A DNA stretch of 64,000 bases, taken from the NCBI GenBank assembly GCA_963711125.1, contig CAVQCY010000002.1:1243852-1307851 (forward strand). The letters are read 5' to 3'. This DNA comes from an uncultured Actinomycetota bacterium (GTDB lineage: Bacteria > Actinomycetota > Actinomycetes > Streptomycetales > Streptomycetaceae). A program made the position numbers and the translations under genes. Under the pieces are notes generated by a model. That model was given only the letters and a program-made list of their open reading frames with translations. It was not told where the DNA came from and searched no databases. Numbering within the stretch: position 1 is the first letter of the stretch; every line of letters begins with the position of its first letter. This document shows positions 3,268 through 15,743 of this stretch, in pieces.

Positions 3268-3864
3268 TTACGGCAGTTGAACCGCTCGTGTCGCTTCTTC
3301 TTTGGGGTGACTCCCACGGCCAGAGCTCGGGGAGGACGACAAGGCCGAGGCCCACCGGAGAGCAATCGCCAGGTGTTCGGGCAACAGGCCCATACGCGGG
3401 TGGGGCTGGATGAGCAGAGTCGGGATACCGCCGGAATTCCGTTCTGCCGCCCATGCGTGGTCGAGGGCGGTGAAGTCGTCGTCGATCCAGACGACGGGAG
3501 CGTCGGCGAGCCAGCCCTCGACGTAATCCCGCTTCCACAGGTAGCCGTTGGGGTGGCTGGTGGTGATCTGCGGACGGGGAAGGTCGACGTACGGGAATGG
3601 CGGAAGGCCGAGGATCGGACCGATGAGAGCGGCGGCGTCCTGGCGCCAACTGGTGCACCAGACAGGGGCGAGGAGGCCGCTGCGGACCACGTTCGTGAGC
3701 AGCTGGCCATGGTCGGGATTGAGCCAGACGGTCACCGGCTCGTCTGGCTGTCGTCCGGTGGGCAGGACGTCGTGACGGTTGTGGGTCGCGGGCGTGGCCC
3801 CATCCGGGGCCGGGAAGGGTATGAGGACGCCGTCGATGTCCAGGAGCAGGTAGGGCAGGGGCAT
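3268..3864 (-). CDS. HAD-superfamily hydrolase
   Basis: Motif I reads LLDIDGVL (DxDG[TV]). A conserved WIDD acidic motif is present. Length is 198 aa. Confidence 0.6.
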   Translation of the reverse strand: MPLPYLLLDIDGVLIPFPAPDGATPATHNRHDVLPTGRQPDEPVTVWLNPDHGQLLTNVVRSGLLAPVWCTSWRQDAAALIGPILGLPPFPYVDLPRPQITTSHPNGYLWKRDYVEGWLADAPVVWIDDDFTALDHAWAAERNSGGIPTLLIQPHPRMGLLPEHLAIALRWASALSSSPSSGRGSHPKEEATRAVQLP

Positions 3865-4159
3865 CGGTTCCTCCGCAGGGGTCGTGGGTGCGGGCTCGGC
3901 GGATCTGCAAGCCGACGAGATCGACTCCGGTCACGAGGGCACCGTGGTAGGCGGCGAGGTGCGCGACGTTGTGGCCGGCGCCGCAGCCGAGTTCCGCTAT
4001 ACGCCTGCCGCGAAGGTCGTTGCCGAGTATCTCGGCACCGGGACCTTGCCCGGGGCGGGTGGCCCACTCCATGCGCTGGGGAGCGGCGAGGGGCTTGGCG
4101 GGCCCGGCAGATACGCGTTGTTGGGCGTGTGCGTGCCAGGGGGAGGTCTGGGCGAGCAT
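3865..4159 (-). pseudogene. Truncated N-terminal fragment (~95 aa) of a class I SAM-dependent methyltransferase
   Basis: The ATG is adjacent to the TAG stop of the upstream APH gene (TAGATG). Motif I AELGCGAGHNVAHLAAYHGALVTGVDL is clear. The fold then degenerates into Pro/Arg-rich nonsense before the HAD gene begins. Confidence 0.35.
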
Positions 4160-5071
4160 CTAGACCTCCAGGAGGTGCACCACGTCGCTGAGGTGGCGTC
4201 GTACGGTCTTGATGTACGCGGGATCGCTGGTGGGGTCGTTGATCCAGCGGATGGCCTGTTCCATGAACCACTCCACCGCCCACATGCGATGCCAGCCGAG
4301 CGCCCACGCCTCGGTCGGCAGACCGCCGCGCCGCGTGAGGGCCTCGGGGGCGCCGCCGGCGGCGACGTAGCTTTCCAGCAGGCCGCGCAACCGAGCGGGG
4401 TCGGGAGCTTCGATGGTGCCGTGCCAGCTGGCGAGGTCGAGCAGGCCGGGGCCGGTAAAGGCGCGGGCGAAGTCCAGCAGCCGCCAGCCGGTGCGGCCGA
4501 TGTGGAGACTGGTGGGGTGGAACTCGGAGTGGACCCAGCCGAACGGGCCGAGCATGGCTCCCTGGGCGCGGTAGCCGGCGGCCTGGGTGATCCGGCCGAG
4601 GGCGTCCTCGATGTCGCCGGTGTCCTCCCAGCGGGCCGCTTTGCGGAGGGCGTGGAGGTGTTCCAGAGCCCGGCCGGGGAGGGCCCGCAGCACGACCTCG
4701 TCGAGGACAGGCAGGGAGATGGCGCGTTGAGCGCCGTGAATGACCACGGCCGCGGTCAGGCCGTCGAGGTCGTCGGCCTCACGGTCCGGGGTGCCGAGGT
4801 CCTCGAGGAGCATGCCGAGCCAGCCCTCGCGGAAAGCGGAGGCGTAGACCTTGGGCACCGGGATACCCCGGTTGCGGGCATGCCGCAGCGCTTGGTCCTC
4901 CCGGTGGAAAGGCGCCTTGGCGTACTTGAAGATGGCCGTCGTCTCGTTGGGGAAGACCAGACGCTCGACTCCGGACATGGACCACACACCCACCTCCTCC
5001 CGCCGTGGTTCCGAACGGTCGGTCTGGGTGCACAGGTCGGCGAGCAGTTCGGCGGTGAGTGTCGGCTCCAT
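4160..5071 (-). CDS. Aminoglycoside/antibiotic phosphotransferase (APH) family protein
   Basis: 303 aa. The catalytic-loop-like HSEFHPTSLHI and the C-terminal region are typical of the phosphotransferase enzyme family (Brenner motif HxDxxxxN degenerate). Confidence 0.65.
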   Translation of the reverse strand: MEPTLTAELLADLCTQTDRSEPRREEVGVWSMSGVERLVFPNETTAIFKYAKAPFHREDQALRHARNRGIPVPKVYASAFREGWLGMLLEDLGTPDREADDLDGLTAAVVIHGAQRAISLPVLDEVVLRALPGRALEHLHALRKAARWEDTGDIEDALGRITQAAGYRAQGAMLGPFGWVHSEFHPTSLHIGRTGWRLLDFARAFTGPGLLDLASWHGTIEAPDPARLRGLLESYVAAGGAPEALTRRGGLPTEAWALGWHRMWAVEWFMEQAIRWINDPTSDPAYIKTVRRHLSDVVHLLEV

Positions 5072-5620
5072 GAGAAGGGTTCCGTTCTGGTAGGGCGTCC
5101 AGGGCGGGCGGCGCGGGGCCGGCCCGCCCTGGAGCCGTCGGGGCGATCAGGCGACGATCAGACTGCGTCGGTCACGCGGTGGACGTAGACCTGCTGGATC
5201 CACTCGGCCTTGAACCTTGCGAGGTCCTCGCGGAAGGCGCTCATCGACGCACCGTAGGGGGCGACGACGCCGCCCGACTGGTCCGGCACGGACTGGCAGC
5301 CGTGCACCAGTCGTCCGCCGAGCGCAGCGTGGGCCTTGATGGACTCGAGGGGGCGGTGCTCGTTGAACCAGCCGCCGTGGTAGACCTCGTCGAGCATGCC
5401 GCCCATCTCGTCGTCCAGGTCGAAGACGACGGAGGTGGCGGCCGGGAAGAACCAGCACGGGCCGACGTTCGAGATGTGCCCGTCCAACTCCACCTTGTTC
5501 AGCGCCATCAGCGTGGCCGCTTGGCGCAGCATCCGCAGGTGATCGGCGGTGAACCTCGGGAGGCCCAGCCCGTCCAGGTGCTCGTCGCGGAACAGGTGGG
5601 CGTACACCTCGTAGGCAGTG

Positions 5621-5660
5621 AGCAGTGTGCATCGTGAAAACTGCAGGTCGGGTGGGCTGG
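5621..5660. repeat. Left terminal inverted repeat of the IS
   Basis: AGCAGTGTGCATCGTGAAAACTGCAGGTCGGGTGGGCTGG matches the reverse complement of 7239-7278. Confidence 0.75.
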
Positions 5661-5792
5661 TGTGCGGAGGGTCGGGAGTGCTCGGGCTGGTCGGCGGCGG
5701 GTGTCCATGGTGAAGATCGTCTGACTGGTCGGCCGGGAGGGTTCTCTGGTTCTGCTGCGACTGCGTGAGCGGGCCGCCTACGATCCGTCACC

Positions 5793-6284
5793 GTGGCGGT
5801 ATACGGGAGATCGTGGGGAGGTGCGGGGATGTCCGATCTGGAGCGGATTACGGCTCGCCGTGACGAACTGGACGCGCTCGCCGGGGAGTTGGCCAAGCGG
5901 CTAGGGGAGGTGGAGGCCGAGCGGGAGGAGCTGGGGATCGCCGAGCGGGTCCTGCGCCGCCTGGTCGAACAGGACTGGGCCGATACGGAGGCTGCTGAGG
6001 CGGCGGCTCCGGTGAAAGCGCAGGTGGCGGGGCGTGCGCTACTGATGATCCCGCACCGCGGTGAGACGGGGAACGAGGCCGCGTTGCCCGCCGACTACTG
6101 CCGGATCTTGGCGATCGTGCGGGCCGCTGGTGGCCCGGTGCAGGTCAAGGCGGTGGGTGAGGAGCTGGGGCTTGAGGTGGGGGTGCGCGGGAAGCTGGAG
6201 CCGCTGCGGGCGAAGATGACCAAGCTCGCCGATCGTGGCTGGCTGCACAAACGGCCGGACGGGAAGTTCACCGTGCGCCTGTAG
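5793..6284 (+). CDS. IS-encoded accessory protein (putative DNA-binding; wHTH-like C-terminus)
   Basis: 163-aa ORF inside the IS, upstream of and co-oriented with the transposase. A coiled-coil N-terminal half is followed by a C-terminal half resembling a winged-helix DNA-binding domain. Harbinger/PIF-type elements typically need a second DNA-binding protein. Confidence 0.45.
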   Translation: MAVYGRSWGGAGMSDLERITARRDELDALAGELAKRLGEVEAEREELGIAERVLRRLVEQDWADTEAAEAAAPVKAQVAGRALLMIPHRGETGNEAALPADYCRILAIVRAAGGPVQVKAVGEELGLEVGVRGKLEPLRAKMTKLADRGWLHKRPDGKFTVRL

Positions 6285-6347
6285 CAGGGCCGGACCGGGG
6301 ACGACAAGGGGCGTAACCGGCGGGCCCCCGACGGCAGTTGAGTTTGT

Positions 6348-7175
6348 GTGAAGAAAAACAACGATACCGTCGAGGGCCCTGACGGCCTTGTCTACACCGC
6401 CCGCCTGCCGCTGTCGAGTGCCACCCTGAACTGGCTGGCTGACCTGATACGCGGCCACTTGAAGAGGATCGGCTCCAGGTGGCGGGTCCTGCCCGCGGGG
6501 AAGATCGCCGGCATCGTGCTGGCGGTGCTGCGCTGTGACCAGCGGCCCGGCGATCTGGCCGGCGGCAACGGGGTGCATCGCACGACCGTGACACGGTGGG
6601 TCAGGGAGGTTGTGGGTCTGCTGGCCGCCCGCGCCCCTCGCCTGGACCGCGCCCTGAAGAAGATCGCCCGAAAGGGTGGCGGGGTGGTGCTGCTGGACGG
6701 CTCGGTGATACGCACCGGGGCCGAGAACCGCAAGAACTACTCGGGCAAGAACAAATGCCATGGCCTGCTCGTGATCGCGCTCACCGACGACCGGGGCCGG
6801 CTGCTGTGGGTCTCGGCGGCCCGGCCCGGGCGGACCTCGGAGATCACCGCCTGCCGCCACGACAAACTCACCGCCCATCTCCGCGCGGCCGGCCTCGGAG
6901 CCATCGCCGACCTGGGCTTCGTCGGCCTCGACGACAGCGGCCCGGACGCCGACCCGGCGGTGATCACCGGCTACAAGGCCGTCCGGAACCGGCCGCTGAC
7001 CCGTGGCCAGAAGCTGTCCAACAAGGCACTGGCCGCAGTGCGCGCCCCGGTCGAGCACGGCTTCGCGCACCTGAAGAACTGGCGCGTCCTGGGCAAGGTC
7101 CGCACGGATCCGAGGCGGGCGACCGCGCTGGTGCGGGCCCTGCTGGTCCTCACGAACAAGGAAGTTGCCCGATGA
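6348..7175 (+). CDS. DDE transposase (HTH_Tnp_4 N-terminus + DDE_Tnp_4-like catalytic domain)
   Basis: The N-terminal HTH reads IAGIVLAVLRCDQRPGDLAGGNGVHRTTVTRWVREVV. The catalytic region reads LLDGSVIRTG...ADLGFVGLDD...ITGYKA. The C-terminal signature is RAPVEHGFAHLKNWRVL. An AT-richer start context is present. Confidence 0.8.
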   Translation: MKKNNDTVEGPDGLVYTARLPLSSATLNWLADLIRGHLKRIGSRWRVLPAGKIAGIVLAVLRCDQRPGDLAGGNGVHRTTVTRWVREVVGLLAARAPRLDRALKKIARKGGGVVLLDGSVIRTGAENRKNYSGKNKCHGLLVIALTDDRGRLLWVSAARPGRTSEITACRHDKLTAHLRAAGLGAIADLGFVGLDDSGPDADPAVITGYKAVRNRPLTRGQKLSNKALAAVRAPVEHGFAHLKNWRVLGKVRTDPRRATALVRALLVLTNKEVAR

Positions 7176-7238
7176 CCGACGATCTTGTCGCTGGACTACC
7201 GCCCCGGACCTGACCGAGCGTCCCGACGCCTACGCACA

Positions 7239-7278
7239 CCAGCCTGCCCAACCTGCAGTTTTCACGATGCACACTGCC
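7239..7278. repeat. Right terminal inverted repeat of the IS
   Basis: Its reverse complement GGCAGTGTGCATCGTGAAAACTGCAGGTTGGGCAGGCTGG matches the left end. Confidence 0.75.
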
Positions 7279-7703
7279 CAGTGCGCAGCACCCGAGCCGC
7301 GTCCGACGTGGACTCGCCGTGGGCCTTCACGAAGTCGAGCGCCATCTGCTCGACCGCGCTCTCGGTCGTCTCCTCGGCGGGCAGCAGCTGGGACTTGACC
7401 AGCTCCCAGTCGGCGACGAGCCAGGTGTGCGACTCGAACCGGAAGAAGTACTGGGCCGGGTCGATGGTGATGTGCTTGCCGTCCACCGTGATGCCGGGCA
7501 GTCGGCTCCAGCGCGGGTCGAACGCCTCGGGGATCTCGACCGAGATGGCCGTGGTGTCGATGGTGGTCACCGTGTCTCCGTCTCTTTCAGGGCACTTCGG
7601 GCACAGGCGTACCTGGACCCGGAGTCGGGTGTACGGATGGGGGCCGCCCGGATCTGGAGAGCCGGAGGGTGCTGTGGCTCCGTGTCCGGGCGGCTGATGA
7701 TTA

Positions 7704-9137
7704 GTGAACCGCCCGGCGCTCACGGTGGGTACGGTAGAGAGCACCCGGGGTGGTATACGCGGTTTACAGCTCGGCCGGAGGGGATCGTGGCAGCTCCGAG
7801 AACCCAATGTCCGCTTACGCGAGGCGATCGCTGCCGCAGGCTGCACGTACGAAGCGCTGGCGAAGGACATCCGTCGCGTGGCAGCGGAGAACGGCGACGT
7901 CCTCCAGACGAACAAGTCCGCAGTCTCCCACTGGGTGAACGGCGCCGAACCCACCGGCCGGACAGGCCAGTACATCGCCGAGGCCCTCGCCCGCCGAGCC
8001 GGTCGGATCATCACCCCCGCGCAGATCGGACTACGGCAGGCGGAAGACCCCGCTCCGGTCGGTGCTGACCCTGTGGTCGCCGCCACCGACCTGGGCCGAG
8101 CCGATGTGGAACGCCGCCGCTTCCTGGCGATCGCGGCCTTCACGACCGCCGGCGTCGCCATGCCGCTGGGATACGACCACGAAGCCACGTCCCGCATGCT
8201 CCGCGCCCGTACCGGTCGCACACGCGTGGGCGTGGAGGACGTCGATGTCGTCCGGCAGATCACCGCTGTGTTCAGCGCCGCTGACGAACGCCTCGGTGGA
8301 GGCCACGGCCTGACCACCGTCACCGCCTACCTGGCAGACACCGCAGCCCCCATGCTCCGCGCCCGCTTCCCCTCCGACCACGTTCGCCGTCAGGCTTTCG
8401 GCGCCGTCGCGGAGTTGGCCTACCTCGCCGGATGGAAGCACCATGACCTTGGCCAGGAAGGCGCCGCCCAGCGCTACTACCAGGTCGGCTACCAACTCGC
8501 CTGCGAGGCGGACCCGTACGGCCACGCCTCCTGGATGATGCGCGCCCTCGCCCACCAGGCCCTCAGCCTCAAGCAACCCCACCACTGCGTCGACCTCGTC
8601 GAAGGAGCCCTGGGTCGTGGCATCGGCCACGTCGACGGCCAGACTGAAGCGCTGCTCCACATCACCCATGCCCGCGCCTACGCGGCCGTCGGCGAGAAGC
8701 CGTCCGCCGCCCGAGCCCTCCTGGCGGCCGAAGATGCCCTGATCCGTGAGGACGGCCCCCAGCCCAGCTTCTCCCTCGTCAGCGGCCCGGCCGCCGGCAC
8801 CGTGGCCAGCCACACCGCCCGCACGCTGACCGATCTCGCCGACCACGTGGGCACGGAGCAGCAACACCGGGACGCGCTGGTGCGCTGGGACCCGGAGAAG
8901 TTCAAGCGTGTACATGCCCTCACGTACGCGGACCTCGGCGACAGCCTCGCCGCCCAGGCCCGAGCTGACGAAGCGGTGGCCGCTTGGTCGCAGGCCCTCG
9001 ACCTGATGGCGGGCATGACCTCCGACCGCACCCGCAAAGCGATCTCCTCAATCAGGTCCACGCTCGCGGTGTACCAGCGACGCCGCGTTCCAGGCGCCGC
9101 GGATCTCGCCCGCCGCGCCCGCGAGGCGCTGGCCTAA
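7704..9137 (+). CDS. XRE-family HTH transcriptional regulator with C-terminal TPR-like helical domain
   Basis: The HTH reads LREAIAAAGCTYEALAKDIRRVAAENGDVLQTNKSAVSHWVNG. A long alpha-helical repeat C-terminus follows. The start is uncertain (GTG 7704 or 7725). The stop precedes the downstream NUDIX ATG by 1 bp. Confidence 0.65.
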   Translation: MNRPALTVGTVESTRGGIRGLQLGRRGSWQLREPNVRLREAIAAAGCTYEALAKDIRRVAAENGDVLQTNKSAVSHWVNGAEPTGRTGQYIAEALARRAGRIITPAQIGLRQAEDPAPVGADPVVAATDLGRADVERRRFLAIAAFTTAGVAMPLGYDHEATSRMLRARTGRTRVGVEDVDVVRQITAVFSAADERLGGGHGLTTVTAYLADTAAPMLRARFPSDHVRRQAFGAVAELAYLAGWKHHDLGQEGAAQRYYQVGYQLACEADPYGHASWMMRALAHQALSLKQPHHCVDLVEGALGRGIGHVDGQTEALLHITHARAYAAVGEKPSAARALLAAEDALIREDGPQPSFSLVSGPAAGTVASHTARTLTDLADHVGTEQQHRDALVRWDPEKFKRVHALTYADLGDSLAAQARADEAVAAWSQALDLMAGMTSDRTRKAISSIRSTLAVYQRRRVPGAADLARRAREALA

Positions 9138-9138
9138 C

Positions 9139-9669
9139 ATGCCCAACAACCCGGCGAACGAAGGGACCATCGTGGCCCACCAGAAGACCGACGAACCCCG
9201 CGCCCTCAAGCCCGCCCTCGACGCGATGACCCTCCTGGTCGCCGGCGTTATCGTCCACGACAAGGCCACCAACCGCGTCGTCCTCCTGCAACGCGGACCC
9301 AACGCCAAATTCGCCCAAGGCATGTGGGACCTACCGGTCGGCAAGAGCGAGTCGGGCGAGCCGATCACGGAAACGGCTGTCCGCGAGCTCTACGAGGAGA
9401 CCGGTCTCACGGTCGAGCCCGAGGCCCTCAAGGTCGCCCACATCATCCACGGCGCCTGGGGTGTCGAGGCCCCCAACGGCTTCCTCACCGTCGTCTTCGC
9501 CGCCCACGAATGGTCCGGAGAGCCGGAGAACCGGGAGCCCCGGAAGCACGCGCAGGTGTGCTGGGTCGACGCCGGTGCGCTTCCTGAGGAGTTCGTACCG
9601 AGTACCGCCAGCGCGCTCCGGTGCTACCTGTCAGGAGGACCAGAGGTCTCCCTCAACGGTTGGCAGTAG
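9139..9669 (+). CDS. NUDIX hydrolase
   Basis: The Nudix box reads GKSESGEPITETAVRELYEETGL (Gx5Ex7REuxEExGu). Length is 176 aa. Confidence 0.8.
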   Translation: MPNNPANEGTIVAHQKTDEPRALKPALDAMTLLVAGVIVHDKATNRVVLLQRGPNAKFAQGMWDLPVGKSESGEPITETAVRELYEETGLTVEPEALKVAHIIHGAWGVEAPNGFLTVVFAAHEWSGEPENREPRKHAQVCWVDAGALPEEFVPSTASALRCYLSGGPEVSLNGWQ

Positions 9670-9761: not shown

Positions 9762-10181
9762 ATGGGCGAGACAGGAGTACACCCCGGCATGGCCAGCACC
9801 ACCACCCCCAGCAGCTTCGGATCGGATCCGGCGCCGCGTCCGAAACGGCGCACATTCTCTGCCGAGTACAAACTGCGCCTGGTCGCCGAGTACGACGCCG
9901 CCCCTCCCGGGGAGAAGGGCGCGATCCTGCGCCGGGAGCGGCTGTACCACTCGCACATCATCGAGTGGCGCCAGGCCCGCGAGGCCGGCGCCCTGGATGG
10001 CCTGGCAGACCGGCGGACCTCGGTGGTCCGGCCGAAGAAGGCCGCCGAGCAGGCCGAGCTGGAACGGCTGCGCAAGAAGGTCGCCCGACTGGAGAAGGAC
10101 CTGGCCCGCCGCGACGCGGCCCTGGAAGTCATGGGAAAAGCCAACGCGCTCTTGGAACTGCTCTCCGAGAGCGCGGACTGA
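9762..10181 (+). CDS. IS3-family transposase OrfA (HTH)
   Basis: The sequence RTFSAEYKLRLVAEYDAAPPGEKGAILRRERLYHSHIIEWRQA plus the leucine-zipper-like tail LERLRKKVARLEKDLARRD are typical of IS3 OrfA. The start may instead be the ATG at 9789. Confidence 0.75.
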   Translation: MGETGVHPGMASTTTPSSFGSDPAPRPKRRTFSAEYKLRLVAEYDAAPPGEKGAILRRERLYHSHIIEWRQAREAGALDGLADRRTSVVRPKKAAEQAELERLRKKVARLEKDLARRDAALEVMGKANALLELLSESAD

Positions 10182-11205
10182 AGCATGCGGCCGCGCCGGT
10201 GGTCGATGAGGCTTTCGCCGGTGTCCAGGGGCAGTTGGGGACCACGGCGGCCTGCCGGCTGACCGGGCGTTCGCGTGCCACCCACTACCGCCACCTCAGC
10301 CCGAAGCCGAGGCCCGCACCGTCCCCGAGACCCGCGCCCGCCTCGGCCCTCTCACCGGCCGAGCGGGCCGCGATCCTGGAACTGCTGAACCGGCCGGAGT
10401 ACGCCGACCTGCCCCCGCACAGGTCTGGGCACGTGAGCTGGACGCGGGCACCTACTGGTGCTCGGAGCGGACGATGTACCGGATCCTGTCCGCAGCCGGG
10501 CAGAACGGCGAACGCCGCCGCCAGGCCACCCACCCGCCCAGAACGATCCCCGAACTGGTCGCGAACGGGCCGTCGCAGGTCTTCACCTGGGACATCACCA
10601 AGCTGCCCGGCCCGGCCAAGGGCATCTGGTACCACGCCTACGTGATCATCGACATCTTCAGCCGCTACATCGTCGGCCACACCGTCGAACTGGCCGAAAC
10701 AGCCGAACGGGCCGAGGAGTTGATCCGTGAGGCCATCGAACGCAACGGCATCGTGCCCGAGACCGTCCACGCGGACCGCGGGACCTCCATGACCAGCAAG
10801 AAGGTCTCCCAACTGCTGATCGACCTTGGTGTCACCAGGAGCCATTCCCGCCCCAGGGTGAGCAACGACAACCCCTACAGCGAGAGCCAGTTCCGCGCCA
10901 CGAAGTACGCCGCCGACTACCCCGCACGCTTCGACTCCCTCACGCACGCCCGGGAGTGGATGGACGCCTTCATCACCTACTACAACCACGACCACAGACA
11001 CTCCGGGATCGGCCTGCACACCCCCGCCTCCGTTCACTTCGGCACCGCCGAGGAGGTCCGGGACCAGCGGGCCGTCGCCCTCGCCGGGGCTTACCAACGC
11101 CACCCCGAACGGTTCGCCCGCCGACCGAGACCACCCGAGATACCCGGCCAGGTCTGGATCAACGACCCCGCCAATCGAAGAGAACCCGAACCACAAAGTT
11201 CATAG
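10150..11205 (+). pseudogene. IS3-family transposase OrfB (DDE integrase core), carrying an extra inactivating frameshift near 10415-10430
   Basis: The OrfB N-part is in the -1 frame (LKHAAAPVVDEAFAG...ILELLNRPEYADLPP). It then needs a further 1-nt shift at a CCCCC run to reach the AQVWARELDAGTYWCSERTMYRILSAAGQ... WDITKL...HADRGTSMTSK...SNDNPYSESQF (DDE) region. Confidence 0.65.
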
Positions 11206-13246: not shown

Positions 13247-14719
13247 GTGTGGCGGATGATGGGAACCGACGGCGGAGGTGGACGGAGGGGTGGTGCGGTG
13301 GTGGACGGCGATTCCATCCAGGCGGAGTCGGACCTGCGGTCCGGGGACCTGCCGGAGTCCGGGCCGGGCGCCCGGCACGAGGAGGGTGTCCCGGGTTCCG
13401 CTCGGCGCCCGTCCGAGGAGGGCGTCCCGGGTTCCGCTCGGGACCAGCCCCGGCCCCGGCCCCGGCGCGGGCGACTGCGCGGGGCCGTGGTCCTCCTCGT
13501 CATCGCGGTGCTGTTCCTCCTGCCCTGGTGGACGCTGTTCGCCTCCGGCGCCGACTGGCCGTTCCCGGTCTTCCTCGCCGGCACGGTCGCCTTCGCCTTC
13601 TGGCTGGTGTCCTTCCCCTTCCTCATGACCGCGGGCCACGGCCGGCGGCGGGACGACCGGGCGGCCCGTGCCGCGGACGGCACCCTCGGGGTGGTCTGGG
13701 TGCTGTTCACCTGGTCGGTGCTGGGCGGCTCGGCCCACCTCGTGCTGATCGGACTCGGCGTCGGCGTCGCCGACCGGGCCAGGGGCGTCGCGGTGGGCGT
13801 CGCCGCGGTCTCCGCCGGGCTGCTGGCGTGGGGGCACCGCGAGGCCATGCGGGTGCCCCGGGTGAAGCGGCTGGACGTCCACGTCCCGCGGCTCGGCGGC
13901 GGTCTGGACGGAACCCGTGTCGTGGTGCTGGCCGACACCCACTTCGGGCCGATCGACCGGGCGGACTGGTCGACGCGGGTCGCGGAGGCCGTCAACGCGC
14001 TCGACGCGCACGTCGTGGTCCACGCGGGCGACATCGCCGACGGCACCCCCGCCCGGCGCCGGGAGCAGTCCGCACCGCTCGGGACGATCCGGTCACGGCT
14101 GGCGAAGGTCTACGTCACGGGGAACCACGAGTACTTCGGGGAGGCCCAGGGCTGGCTGGACCGCATGGCGGAACTGGGCTGGGAACCGCTGCACAATCGC
14201 CACGTCGTGGTGGAGCGCGGCGGCGAGACCCTCGTGCTGGCCGGGGTGGACGACGTGACGGCGGAGTCCTCCGGCCTGGCCGGCCACCGCGCGAACCTGC
14301 TGGGTGCGTTGGCGGGCACCGACCCGGAACGGCCGGTCCTGCTCGTCGCCCACCAGCCCAAGTTCGTCGCACAGGCCGCCGCCGCCGGTGTCGACCTACA
14401 GGTCTCGGGGCACACTCACGGCGGCCAGATCTGGCCGTTCAACTTCCTGGTCCGACTCGACCAGCCGGTGGTGCACGGCCTGAGCCGGCACGGCGAGCGG
14501 ACCCAGCTCTACACCAGCCGGGGCACCGGCTTCTGGGGGCCGCCCTTCCGGGTCTTCGCACCGAGCGAGATCACGCTGCTGACGCTGCGCGCCGGGCGGG
14601 CCGCGCCGGAGCGCACCGCCGATCCCTCCGCGGCGCCCGCGGCGGGTCCGCGCGGCCCCCGCCCGGTCGGTCCGGGCCGGTTCAGGCGGGCGGCCGGCGG
14701 ACCACGCGGACGTCGGTGA
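13247..14719 (+). CDS. Membrane-anchored calcineurin-like metallophosphoesterase; start uncertain
   Basis: Motifs ADTHFG, GDIADG, GNHEY and GHTHGGQ are present. Hydrophobic segments lie N-terminal to the catalytic domain. The N-terminal region contains a 36-bp tandem duplication. Confidence 0.65.
   Translation: MWRMMGTDGGGGRRGGAVVDGDSIQAESDLRSGDLPESGPGARHEEGVPGSARRPSEEGVPGSARDQPRPRPRRGRLRGAVVLLVIAVLFLLPWWTLFASGADWPFPVFLAGTVAFAFWLVSFPFLMTAGHGRRRDDRAARAADGTLGVVWVLFTWSVLGGSAHLVLIGLGVGVADRARGVAVGVAAVSAGLLAWGHREAMRVPRVKRLDVHVPRLGGGLDGTRVVVLADTHFGPIDRADWSTRVAEAVNALDAHVVVHAGDIADGTPARRREQSAPLGTIRSRLAKVYVTGNHEYFGEAQGWLDRMAELGWEPLHNRHVVVERGGETLVLAGVDDVTAESSGLAGHRANLLGALAGTDPERPVLLVAHQPKFVAQAAAAGVDLQVSGHTHGGQIWPFNFLVRLDQPVVHGLSRHGERTQLYTSRGTGFWGPPFRVFAPSEITLLTLRAGRAAPERTADPSAAPAAGPRGPRPVGPGRFRRAAGGPRGRR
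13379..13450. repeat. 36-bp tandem duplication inside the phosphoesterase N-terminal coding region (EEGVPGSARxPS x2)
   Basis: GAGGAGGGTGTCCCGGGTTCCGCTCGG is repeated, with T to C and divergent 3' ends. Confidence 0.6.
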
Positions 14720-15743
14720 CCTCCATCAGGCCGTCGAGGTCGACCACCGTCCTGGTCTGGCCGGGGTCGACCACGAGACCGTCGCGGCGTACGAGGTCCA
14801 GCAGCCGTTCGGCCAGCGGGAGCACCATGTGGCGGCCCCAGCAGCGTTCGTTGGCGTGGCCGAACGGCAGGTAGCCGGGGTGGGTGTCGCCGTCCAGGTC
14901 GTTCCACCGCTCCGGGCGGAACGCGTCCGGCTCGTCCCACAGCGCGGGGTCGCGGTGGCTCAGCAGCGGCAGCAGCAGCACGTCGTCGCCCGGGCCGATC
15001 CGTTCGTCCACCCGCGCGAACTCCGGCGAGGCGACCCGCAGGATGTTCCACGACACCGGCAGCAGGCGCAGCGCCTCCAGGATGACGTTGCGGTGGGGGA
15101 CGTCGTCGTCGAACGGCGCGCCGAGCCAGAGCGCGTTGGTGACGAGGGCGGCCACCGTGAAGCAGATCGGCGCGGCGACCCGGCGGTAGAGGTACATCGC
15201 GTAGCGCCGCTCGGCGTAGTCCGGGGCGTTCAGGACCAGGCCGGCCAGCTTCGACATCGGCAGGTCGCGGCCGGGCCGGCGCAGGAACGCGGCGCCCGAG
15301 GTGACGGCGGACCAGGTGACCTTCGGCGTCAACTCCAGCCTGCGGTCGACCAGGACACGGAACCGGAGGCTCTCACGGCCGAACACCAGGTCGCGCAGGT
15401 ACGTGTGCGGCACGTGCGGCCAGCGGCCGGTCAGGTCGGCCCGTTCGTCCGCCAGCGGTCGTTGCAGCGCGCGCCGCACGTCGGCGCCCACCGCCTGCAT
15501 GAAAGTGGAGGCGTCGGCCCGGCTCACCTCACGACCCCACACCGGTTTGAACGTGGGCCTTTCCTCGGCGTTCGCCGGCCGGCTGCGGAGCACCCCGTCC
15601 ATCAGGTCGGCGCCGGCAATTCCTACGGTGTCGGATTCCAGCCGGAAAAGCTGTTGGCCGCGATATCGGGTGAGGAGTTCCTCAATTCTCGGTGCGAACT
15701 CCACGACGCGGGTGGGCTGACCGGCGGTACGGTGCTTCGGCAT
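14682..15743 (-). CDS. Cytochrome P450 (short, 353 aa)
   Basis: K-helix ExxR (EALRLLP), PERF-like FRPERW and a heme-binding loop PFGHANERCWG with the conserved Cys are present. It is convergent with, and overlaps, the phosphoesterase 3' end by 38 bp. Confidence 0.7.
   Translation of the reverse strand: MPKHRTAGQPTRVVEFAPRIEELLTRYRGQQLFRLESDTVGIAGADLMDGVLRSRPANAEERPTFKPVWGREVSRADASTFMQAVGADVRRALQRPLADERADLTGRWPHVPHTYLRDLVFGRESLRFRVLVDRRLELTPKVTWSAVTSGAAFLRRPGRDLPMSKLAGLVLNAPDYAERRYAMYLYRRVAAPICFTVAALVTNALWLGAPFDDDVPHRNVILEALRLLPVSWNILRVASPEFARVDERIGPGDDVLLLPLLSHRDPALWDEPDAFRPERWNDLDGDTHPGYLPFGHANERCWGRHMVLPLAERLLDLVRRDGLVVDPGQTRTVVDLDGLMEVTDVRVVRRPPA

Follow-up and report, generated by a model that had tools for sequence, protein, structure and literature searches.

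IS493 of Streptomyces lividans is said to have been described by Solenberg and Burgett in 1989, and its derivatives Tn5096 and Tn5099 reportedly go back to Solenberg and Baltz in 1991. The element is reportedly about 1.6 kb long, carries two tandem ORFs and inserts at a CANTg site, of which ANT is duplicated; no target-site data are given in the reviews that mention it. In the IS5 family of ISfinder, subgroups such as IS1031 and ISL2 have GAG tips and duplicate 2-3 bp. The PIF/Harbinger/Pong elements encode a transposase and a second protein, and they generate 3-bp duplications with a free middle base within an extended palindromic target (PMC12730594, PMC4561436, PMC2836001). Duplications of 3 bp are likewise found in canonical Harbinger relatives (PMC12730594; PMC4561436), and relatives within the transposase superfamily duplicate 0-3 bp of their target (PMC12730594).

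The insertion sequence (IS) analysed here lies within a 64-kb stretch of DNA (64,000 nucleotides, referred to as the window) and interrupts a conserved gene on the minus strand. The reading that we favor, with a probability of about 0.8, is that a two-ORF IS of the IS5/DDE_Tnp_4 type, related to PIF-Harbinger, inserted once at codon 97 of this gene, duplicated the triplet AGT and caused a null mutation. Under a 3-bp duplication model, the IS spans 1660 bp (5620..7279, plus strand) with the tips GAG...CCC; a preliminary description of the locus had placed it at 5621-7278 (1658 bp), following a 5-bp model. Like other IS5-family/DDE_Tnp_4 elements, it is bordered by terminal inverted repeats, whose perfect 27-nt core GCAGTGTGCATCGTGAAAACTGCAGGT is located at 5622..5648 on the plus strand and at 7251..7277 on the minus strand. 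This core has two matches in the 64 kb and was matched in none of 100 shuffles, and the inverted-repeat arms reach 107 nt with 79% complementarity.

The IS encodes two proteins in tandem on the plus strand. ORF1 (5829..6284) comprises 151 amino acids from the ATG at 5829, or 163 from the GTG at 5793, and an ORF of 150-151 amino acids is called at the equivalent position in the IS relatives. Its best Pfam match is a weak one to the helix-turn-helix family MarR_2 (E = 0.008, below threshold), and the Myb/SANT domain of the second PIF/Harbinger protein was not found in ORF1 by the same search; the protein probably acts as a small DNA-binding accessory factor. ORF2 (6348..7175) encodes a DDE transposase of 275 amino acids, compared with 279 in relatives, and exceeds the Pfam cut-offs for both PF13359 (DDE_Tnp_4; 74.6 bits, cut-off 24.8) and PF01609 (DDE_Tnp_1; 48 bits, cut-off 23). 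In an alignment with 12 relatives, D117, D188, E236, R232 and K243 show complete or at least 90% conservation; they include the putative catalytic D-D-E residues, assigned by position and established knowledge, and the signature R232-x3-E236-x6-K243. Against the NCBIfam IS5 equivalog transpos_IS5_4, ORF2 scores 69 bits (cut-off 140) and by this measure is a distant branch outside the equivalog. The window copy also carries two private lesions: a 12-nt deletion between 6710 and 6711, which removes the 4 codons for RTRR adjoining the first catalytic Asp, and the substitution W257R (codon 7116-7118) relative to the aligned relatives.

IS493 and the window element share a Streptomyces host, two tandem ORFs on one strand and imperfect terminal inverted repeats. 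The window element, which may be linked to IS493 by these properties, also agrees with it in length (1660 bp), in its ORFs of 151 and 275 amino acids, and in the flank consensus C-A-N-T-G of 116 ends; the 4-codon deletion beside the first catalytic Asp is a difference. With the IS5 family, it shares a transposase domain above the Pfam thresholds, the D-D-E residues with R-x3-E-x6-K, the GAG tip, a palindromic target whose central base is free and, on the 3-bp model, a short duplication of that target, but it is longer than the IS5 subgroups and its upstream ORF is a separate rather than a frameshifted one. With PIF/Harbinger/Pong elements such as mPing/Pong, it has the transposase superfamily, the coding of two proteins and probably the 3-bp duplication with a free middle base in common, whereas it is bacterial and its consensus triplet is ANT instead of TWA. 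In species-representative genomes of other Streptomycetaceae, 352 relatives of 1.61-1.67 kb were confirmed by tblastn. Many of them lie on contigs of about 1.65 kb with high coverage, typical of collapsed multicopy repeats. Relatives are labelled 'IS5/IS1182 family transposase' in their sources. The element is a further example of an already known and very common IS type of the Streptomycetaceae.

Removal of 1663 bp (the IS plus one repeat) restores an open minus-strand frame of 249 codons (...AARVLR-T-AYEVYAHLFRDEH...); removal of 1658 bp restores no open 249-codon frame. The predicted uninterrupted site, 1663 bp shorter, reads ...GTAGGCAGTGCGCAG..., and the uninterrupted site is present as DNA in L002 and L001. 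The rebuilt protein has 492 homologues in Streptomyces and Kitasatospora, most of them exactly 249 amino acids long and the best with 96% identity; among the 120 listed, all but a few are full-length (about 240-255 amino acids). The alignment of these homologues shows no gap across the junction, and P0001 carries an identical AARVLRTAYEVYAHLFRDEH. Because the homologues begin with MTTID, the start of the gene was placed at the GTG at 7570 and not at 7573. Codons 1-97 occupy 7280..7570, and codons 98-249 plus the stop codon occupy 5158..5616, both on the minus strand. An element that owns CANTG entirely (1668 bp, no duplication) was considered and rejected, as removing 1668 bp drops 5 nt of all homologues and breaks the frame.

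These data show that an IS was simply inserted into a host gene that is real and conserved, and that the reconstitution is exact. The gapless in-frame reconstitution is strong evidence for the insertion, while the direct repeat alone is weak. The preliminary description had recognized two ORF halves (7284-7573 and 5158-5620) that rejoin in frame, and both the halves and their rejoining hold, with the start shifted from 7573 to 7570. It had also called the family of the protein unknown. This is in line with our searches, in which the 249-amino-acid protein gave no significant match in Pfam, NCBIfam, PADLOC, PHROGs, PDB sequences or PDB folds; by sequence, the gene is a member of a conserved orphan family.

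The direct repeats CAGTG are located at 5616-5620 and 7279-7283. Over 116 related IS ends, the flanks follow the consensus C-A-N-T-G (C 87%, A 91%, N free, T 91%, G 96%), and this pattern is seen on both flanks whether they are duplicates or not. Because CA.TG flanks are near-universal in the related copies, the direct repeat is weak evidence and only its central base is informative; identity of two flanking 5-mers by chance is expected in roughly one of five copies. For annotation, this calls for caution, since in this IS family most of a perfect 5-bp direct repeat is accounted for by the IS tip and the target consensus, and it is unusable for calling an insertion of this family recent.

Within the window, duplications of 3 bp and 5 bp fit equally well; the related copies lean to 3 bp, a preference that depends on five copies and on the contrast of 96% versus 87%. 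Six copies fit a 3-bp duplication with the IS tips G...C (L103, L107, L043, L057, L076 and L019). One of them, L019, has the non-consensus triplet CCT at both flanks, which indicates a real duplication compatible with 3 or 5 bp. In the other five, the triplet matches and the right outer base is not G, as in L103 (C-ATG-G / C-ATG-C), which does not fit the 5-bp model. The CAGTG repeat is most likely a 3-bp duplication of AGT (left copy 5617..5619, right copy 7280..7282), in which C5616 and G7283 would belong to the target, and G5620 and C7279 would be the IS tips. According to the 5-bp version, the IS extends from 5621 to 7278, and 5-nt staggered cuts made CAGTG a true, freshly made duplication. 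With both 5-mers identical, this version explains the window as well as the 3-bp model does, and it also fits eight further copies with identical 5-mers (L012, L015, L016, L019, L023, L026, L058 and L095). We nevertheless consider it unlikely, since L103 (CATGG/CATGC), L107, L043, L057 and L076 share the triplet but differ at the fifth base, and since the innermost base (-1, G in 111/116) is more conserved than the outermost (-5, C in 101/116), as would be expected if it were owned by the IS; moreover, the same transposase superfamily makes duplications of 0-3 bp (PMC12730594). What stands of the 'exact 5-bp duplication' proposed earlier is the presence of CAGTG at both ends; the length of 5 bp is not supported, given that CANTG is family-wide and five copies do not fit.

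Among about 35 two-ended relatives, about 14 have the same triplet at both flanks and about 60% differ in the central base; exact-protein look-ups yielded few new two-ended copies, and plasmids added two. The flanks of most copies in this IS family are not simple duplications. A comparison of the flanks of different IS copies, as a sign of nested insertion or of a longer element, revealed no homology except for one locus that was seen twice. Continuity of the GC3 codon phase across the excised IS was observed in 6 of 14 matching copies versus 3 of 20 discordant ones (chance about 1/6), with most flanks being poorly coding, which gives a weak hint that the copies with discordant flanks may be rearranged. 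It is also conceivable, albeit doubtful, that the IS leaves its donor site with 3-nt overhangs from the old duplication, and that the mismatch at the central base of the new site then segregates, by analogy to the excision model proposed for the eukaryotic PIF/Pong/Harbinger relatives. Such a carry-over would explain why about 60% of the copies keep A.T and differ in the middle base, and AGT/AGT in the window would then be a minority outcome and no mark of freshness; the discordant central bases could be a natural read-out of end cutting by DDE_Tnp_4 transposases.

Returning to the favored single insertion with a 3-bp duplication, the IS would have recognized the preferred palindromic site of its family, C/AGT/G, and staggered cuts 3 nt apart, presumably during cut-and-paste transposition, would have duplicated AGT. 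With G as the first and C as the last base of the IS, both junctions would then read CAGTG and imitate a 5-bp duplication. An alternative origin of the split, a repeat misplaced within an intact gene during assembly, is hardly credible. IS elements are a classic source of misassembly, and common reads may underlie both assemblies with the insertion, namely the source contig and Logan ERR11571143; however, the Logan contig L003 reads through the entire IS and continues into unique DNA at either end, and the junctions combine canonical family flanks with a frame-restoring exact duplication, unlike a random misjoin.

The insertion probably amounts to a null mutation. As it stands, the N-terminal part runs into the IS, where it adds GQCAS before a stop at 7262-7264, so that 97 native residues plus GQCAS would remain, and the other 152 codons would be left with neither promoter nor ribosome-binding site. 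The C-terminal part does contain the GTG-initiated ORF (5158-5607, 149 amino acids) noted in the preliminary description, for which the source assembly has a gene call. In a scan for promoters and terminators, no sigma-70-like promoter site was detected between 5000 and 7800, contrary to the outward-reading IS promoter that had been suggested. Upstream of the GTG at 5607, no Shine-Dalgarno sequence was found at a workable distance, the sole GAGG abutting the GTG without spacing; the ORF is thus predicted to be silent. That the split is old and tolerated because function is still provided by both halves, or at any rate by the 149-amino-acid ORF read from an outward IS promoter, would be in line with this gene call, with both halves being open without extra stops or frameshifts, and with the retention of conserved sites. 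We regard it as very improbable, as neither a promoter-like site in or near the left end of the IS nor a usable Shine-Dalgarno sequence is present, nearly all homologues among the 120 listed have the full length, and the further lesion that the operon carries favors loss over retention. Furthermore, the AlphaFold model of the rebuilt protein predicts one compact unit, in which helix H91-105 runs through the break point.

Of 119 sites with a conservation of at least 95%, the split gene departs from the consensus at 3, and intact homologues do so at 0 to 6. A recent insertion is plausible and compatible with this undecayed state, from which no date is derivable. No sister strain proved to have the empty site; the closest uninterrupted allele has 96.3% DNA identity, and a search of JGI metagenome contigs with a 32-nt pattern across the predicted empty junction gave no match. 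The earlier designation of the insertion as recent is compatible with the undecayed host gene, but it is not supported by an empty-site sister strain, and the IS copy carries private lesions.

Taken alone, the insertion is an ordinary event, one more gene disrupted by a common IS, and matters little; the interrupted gene, however, marks a well-conserved and uncharacterised operon. Its conserved order is the orphan protein (first), a kinase-like protein, a SAM-methyltransferase and a HAD phosphatase, and this gene order is shared with S. prasinus and Kitasatospora. The kinase-like protein of 303 amino acids (4160..5071, minus strand) is intact. NCBI names it 'aminoglycoside phosphotransferase family protein' in other genomes, and it is an APH in this nominal sense; it matches no Pfam family, including APH, even at E = 10, and its invariant loop H-S-E-F-H-P-T-S does not match the APH catalytic H-x-D-x4-N. 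The preliminary description had named an APH gene and a methyltransferase fragment as neighbors, and the latter is confirmed: the remnant (3884..4159, minus strand) retains residues 1-92 of about 230, and intact genes of 227-230 amino acids are found in L101 and L102. The last gene, encoding a HAD_SAK_2 phosphatase-like protein (3268..3864, minus strand), is intact. Since the IS sits antisense in the first gene of the four-gene operon, it should be polar on the genes behind.

Because the methyltransferase gene is truncated in addition to the IS-split first gene, the operon appears to be decaying in this strain; the independent loss of about 60% of the methyltransferase would suggest that the whole module is being lost. 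PADLOC and PHROGs searches with the operon proteins gave no system-level match; the hits obtained were generic ones to NUDIX, methyltransferase and regulator families. The surrounding stretch of the Streptomyces chromosome is rich in mobile DNA, and an Rfam search of the entire 64-kb window returned no matches. Upstream of the interrupted gene, a divergent pair is encoded on the plus strand, consisting of an NsdA-family regulator, whose ORF runs from 7704 and shows homology between about 7800 and 9137, and a NUDIX hydrolase (9139-9669), an arrangement also present in L102. The strain is thus a natural double mutant of the conserved, uncharacterised operon that adjoins this divergent pair.

In the window, an insertion sequence (IS) lies antisense within the minus-strand gene of a 249 amino acid protein. 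The pentanucleotide CAGTG is present at 5616-5620 and repeated at 7279-7283; removing 1663 bp yields a single open minus-strand frame of 249 codons, which is not restored by removing 1658 bp. The rebuilt protein has 492 homologues, the best 120 of which stem from Streptomyces, Kitasatospora, Actinoallomurus and Nocardioides, are nearly all 247-253 and mostly exactly 249 amino acids long, and share 73-96% identity over 94-100% of the length. A 14-sequence alignment of the rebuilt protein shows no gap at the IS junction, and the homologue P0001 contains the identical sequence AARVLRTAYEVYAHLFRDEH across it. The uninterrupted site was also found as DNA, in the related locus L002 (96.3% nucleotide identity), where the sense strand reads CTGCGCACAGCCTAC, the counterpart of the CTGCGCACTGCCTAC that the window would carry after IS excision, and in Streptomyces sp. 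RB6PN25 (L001; 90.8% identity). The restored frame, the gapless homologues and the empty-site DNA bear out the simple insertion with in-frame reconstitution that the preliminary description had proposed, and establish a clean IS insertion into a genuine gene. This gene starts with GTG at 7570 (MTTID...), three bases inside the boundary first assigned to it. The same insertion is found in the Logan assembly of run ERR11571143, on a contig (L003) that extends from the C-terminal half across the entire IS to the NUDIX gene, although this run and the source genome may represent one read set.

The IS occupies 5620-7279, with the tips GAG...CCC, inverted repeats and two plus-strand ORFs. The perfect 27-nt inverted-repeat cores are located at 5622-5648 (left, GCAGTGTGCATCGTGAAAACTGCAGGT) and 7251-7277 (right, the reverse complement of GCAGTGTGCATCGTGAAAACTGCAGGT); the core matches twice across the 64-kb window and never in 100 shuffles, and the repeat arms reach 107 nt at 79% complementarity. 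ORF1 encodes 151 amino acids from ATG 5829, or 163 from GTG 5793, and matches no Pfam family over threshold, its top match being a weak MarR-type HTH (E = 0.008). ORF2 (6348-7175) encodes a 275 amino acid transposase, which scores above the Pfam thresholds, with 74.6 bits for DDE_Tnp_4 and 48 bits for DDE_Tnp_1, and stays below the NCBIfam IS5 equivalog cut-off (69 versus 140 bits). IS4/IS5-type DDE transposases typically carry a D-D-E triad with an R-x3-E-x6-K pattern, and alignment with 11 relatives showed that ORF2 retains D117, D188, E236 and R232-x3-E236-x6-K243. Nearly all listed relatives of this transposase are 279 amino acids long. ORF2 carries a private 12-nt in-frame deletion at 6710/6711, between two CGCACC repeats, which removes the residues R-T-R-R five positions after the first catalytic Asp; these residues are present in all 11 aligned relatives. 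A second private change, W257R (7116-7118), alters a tryptophan with at least 90% conservation. Judged by these two sequence lesions, the copy may now be immobile or inactive. The exact transposase sequence is recorded on two contigs only, both with this same insertion. The IS is a new copy of an already known type of element.

The CAGTG repeats had been described as an exact 5-bp target duplication. The pentanucleotide is indeed present on each side, but comparison with related copies makes a shorter duplication more likely. A protein-guided scan, covering each species by one genome, yielded 352 confirmed transposase relatives, and 80 loci were kept. Many of these are contigs of ~1.65 kb, one at 553-fold coverage, a hallmark of a collapsed multicopy IS. 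Tips located in the scan loci, in additional loci from exact-protein look-ups and in two plasmids provided 116 distinct IS ends. Reading toward the tip, the flank consists of C at position -5 (87%), A at -4 (91%), T at -2 (91%) and G at -1 (96%), while position -3 shows no preference (A 22, C 35, G 33, T 26). Since CA.TG on both sides is a family-wide property, it does not indicate a fresh duplication, and among the five flanking bases the central one alone is informative.

Copies that deviate from the consensus help to distinguish the two lengths. L103 is flanked as C-ATG-G / IS / C-ATG-C, and matching triplets are found at L107 and L043 (AAT), L057 (AGT) and L076 (ACT), where the right triplet is followed by C, C, T and C, respectively, and not by G. 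These five copies fit a 3-bp duplication between tips G...C, not a 5-bp one. L019 carries the non-consensus triplet CCT on each side, which proves a real duplication and is compatible with either 3 or 5 bp. The innermost flank base is more conserved than the outermost (111/116 versus 101/116), which also points toward 3 bp, and canonical Harbinger relatives within the same transposase superfamily generate 3-bp duplications (PMC12730594; PMC4561436). Taken together, the non-consensus copies, the innermost-base bias and the Harbinger likeness argue for an IS at 5620-7279 that duplicated AGT within the target C|AGT|G. The supposed 5-bp duplication is therefore best read as 3 bp plus the IS tips, although the window alone fits both readings equally. 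IS493 of S. lividans, with ~1.6 kb and two ORFs, reportedly inserts into CANTg and duplicates ANT. The reading given here for the window IS matches this behaviour, which we take as a lead only.

Among ~35 two-ended related copies, the same triplet is found on both sides in ~14, with ~17-25% expected by chance. In the other ~60%, A and T are kept and the middle base alone differs, e.g. in L022 (ACT/AGT), L008 (ATT/AAT), L028 (ACT/AAT) and L047; the flanks of L008 and L028 come from long or complete assemblies. Possible ordinary causes are IS-IS recombination, transposase-mediated adjacent deletions or inversions, and chimeric draft contigs, the last illustrated by L095 and L096, which have a left flank in common and differ in their right flanks. 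A codon-phase test of the flanks, which is a weak test, found continuity in 3/20 discordant versus 6/14 matching copies and hints that the flanks of discordant copies are not contiguous. PIF/Pong/Harbinger elements have been proposed to excise by staggered cuts inside their duplications (PMC4561436); an element departing with donor-duplication overhangs would create a central-base mismatch at its next site and so explain the discordance, an explanation that we consider improbable.

Some related copies show further peculiarities. In JGI metagenomes, L095/L098 and L096/L097 have an identical IS and left flank and two unrelated right flanks, both starting with CACTGG, which points either to a genuine polymorphic rearrangement or to contigs wrongly joined at the repeat. 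Streptomyces sp. NBC_00988 (CP108730, ~2.19-2.21 Mb) contains two inverted copies 11 kb apart (L038 and L039), whose inner flanks differ and whose outer flanks are both CAGTG in genome orientation; the pair resembles a composite transposon that made a duplication of its own. The loci L085-L094 encode a transposase (P0123) 95% identical to that of the window and end canonically on the right; in the 1200 nt upstream of their transposase gene, neither a left inverted repeat nor a 151 amino acid ORF1 could be recognised. The left portion of these elements is either absent or unlike that of the window IS.

The insertion had also been called recent. Both gene halves lack stops and frameshifts over 750 nt, and this absence of decay counts toward a young insertion. 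Of 119 positions with at least 95% conservation, the rebuilt protein deviates from consensus at only 3 (L13I, Y104H, R186P), and 58 intact homologues show 0-6 such departures. Against a stronger claim stand the private lesions of the IS, the occurrence of its exact transposase on no more than the two contigs with this insertion, and the missing empty allele from the same lineage; the exact 32-nt junction pattern had no match in metagenome contigs. A recent insertion is thus plausible, but undated.

As it stands, the N-terminal frame encodes 97 native residues followed by GQCAS and a stop within the IS. The C-terminal half retains a GTG-initiated ORF of 149 amino acids (5158-5607), called a gene in the source assembly, and the suggestion that an outward-reading IS promoter drives it was not supported: a scan of 5000-7800 detected no sigma-70-like promoter on either strand, and the sole GAGG upstream directly abuts the GTG. 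By its sequence context, this ORF would be a mechanical by-product. For the intact family, AlphaFold (pTM 0.80, mean pLDDT 77.5) predicts a single unit that combines a small sheet at the N-terminus with a helical body and has helix 91-105 spanning the insertion point; a functional half-protein therefore seems unlikely.

In agreement with its initial assignment to an unknown family, searches of Pfam (up to E = 10), NCBIfam, PADLOC, PHROGs and PDB sequences gave no match to the interrupted protein. Among 1.84 billion representatives, a profile search retrieved 94 clusters only, mostly fragments. With invariant stretches that include HISNVGPCWFFP and DEVYHGGWFNEHRR, it represents a narrow, highly conserved orphan family. 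The 90%-identity cluster (P0242, P0243, P0249) that holds the 149 amino acid fragment and intact 249 amino acid homologues is represented by an unrelated 303 amino acid 'aminoglycoside phosphotransferase family protein', which belongs to the family of the neighbouring gene. This representative probably explains the UniRef name 'Aminoglycoside phosphotransf...' on the 249 amino acid homologue P0002, and the cluster is likely to propagate erroneous names.

Three co-directional genes lie downstream of the 249 amino acid gene in S. prasinus (L102) and Kitasatospora (L101); they encode a kinase-like protein of 296-303 amino acids named 'aminoglycoside phosphotransferase family protein' by NCBI, a SAM-methyltransferase (227-230 amino acids) and a HAD_SAK_2 phosphatase (181 amino acids). 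Both in S. prasinus and the window, the 249 amino acid gene diverges from genes for an NsdA-family regulator and a NUDIX hydrolase. Together with these divergent genes, the conserved module spans 3268-9669 of the window; the module is also present in L101, L102 and L001. The methyltransferase fragment noticed beside the disrupted gene proved to be just that: residues 1-92 of ~230 remain (4159-3884, minus strand), which adds a second, independent lesion to the interrupted operon. In Streptomyces sp. RB6PN25, only 97 residues of the kinase-like protein are left and the regulator gene is fragmented. The module is evidently dispensable, and its degradation, seen in at least two strains, is frequent. 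Mobile DNA abounds in the surroundings: a relaxase-domain (MobA/VirD2-like) ORF at 804-2561 and an IS3-family element at ~9762-11205, with an OrfA-like ORF and an rve integrase-core ORF, bracket the region, which suggests that the operon sits in a mobile or variable island. The S. prasinus module adjoins caspase/STAND-NTPase and helicase genes. Further along the window, a 353 amino acid ORF (14682-15743, minus strand) is similar to the cytochrome P450 domain over its C-terminal quarter alone (profile positions 326-416 of 462) and may be another truncated gene.
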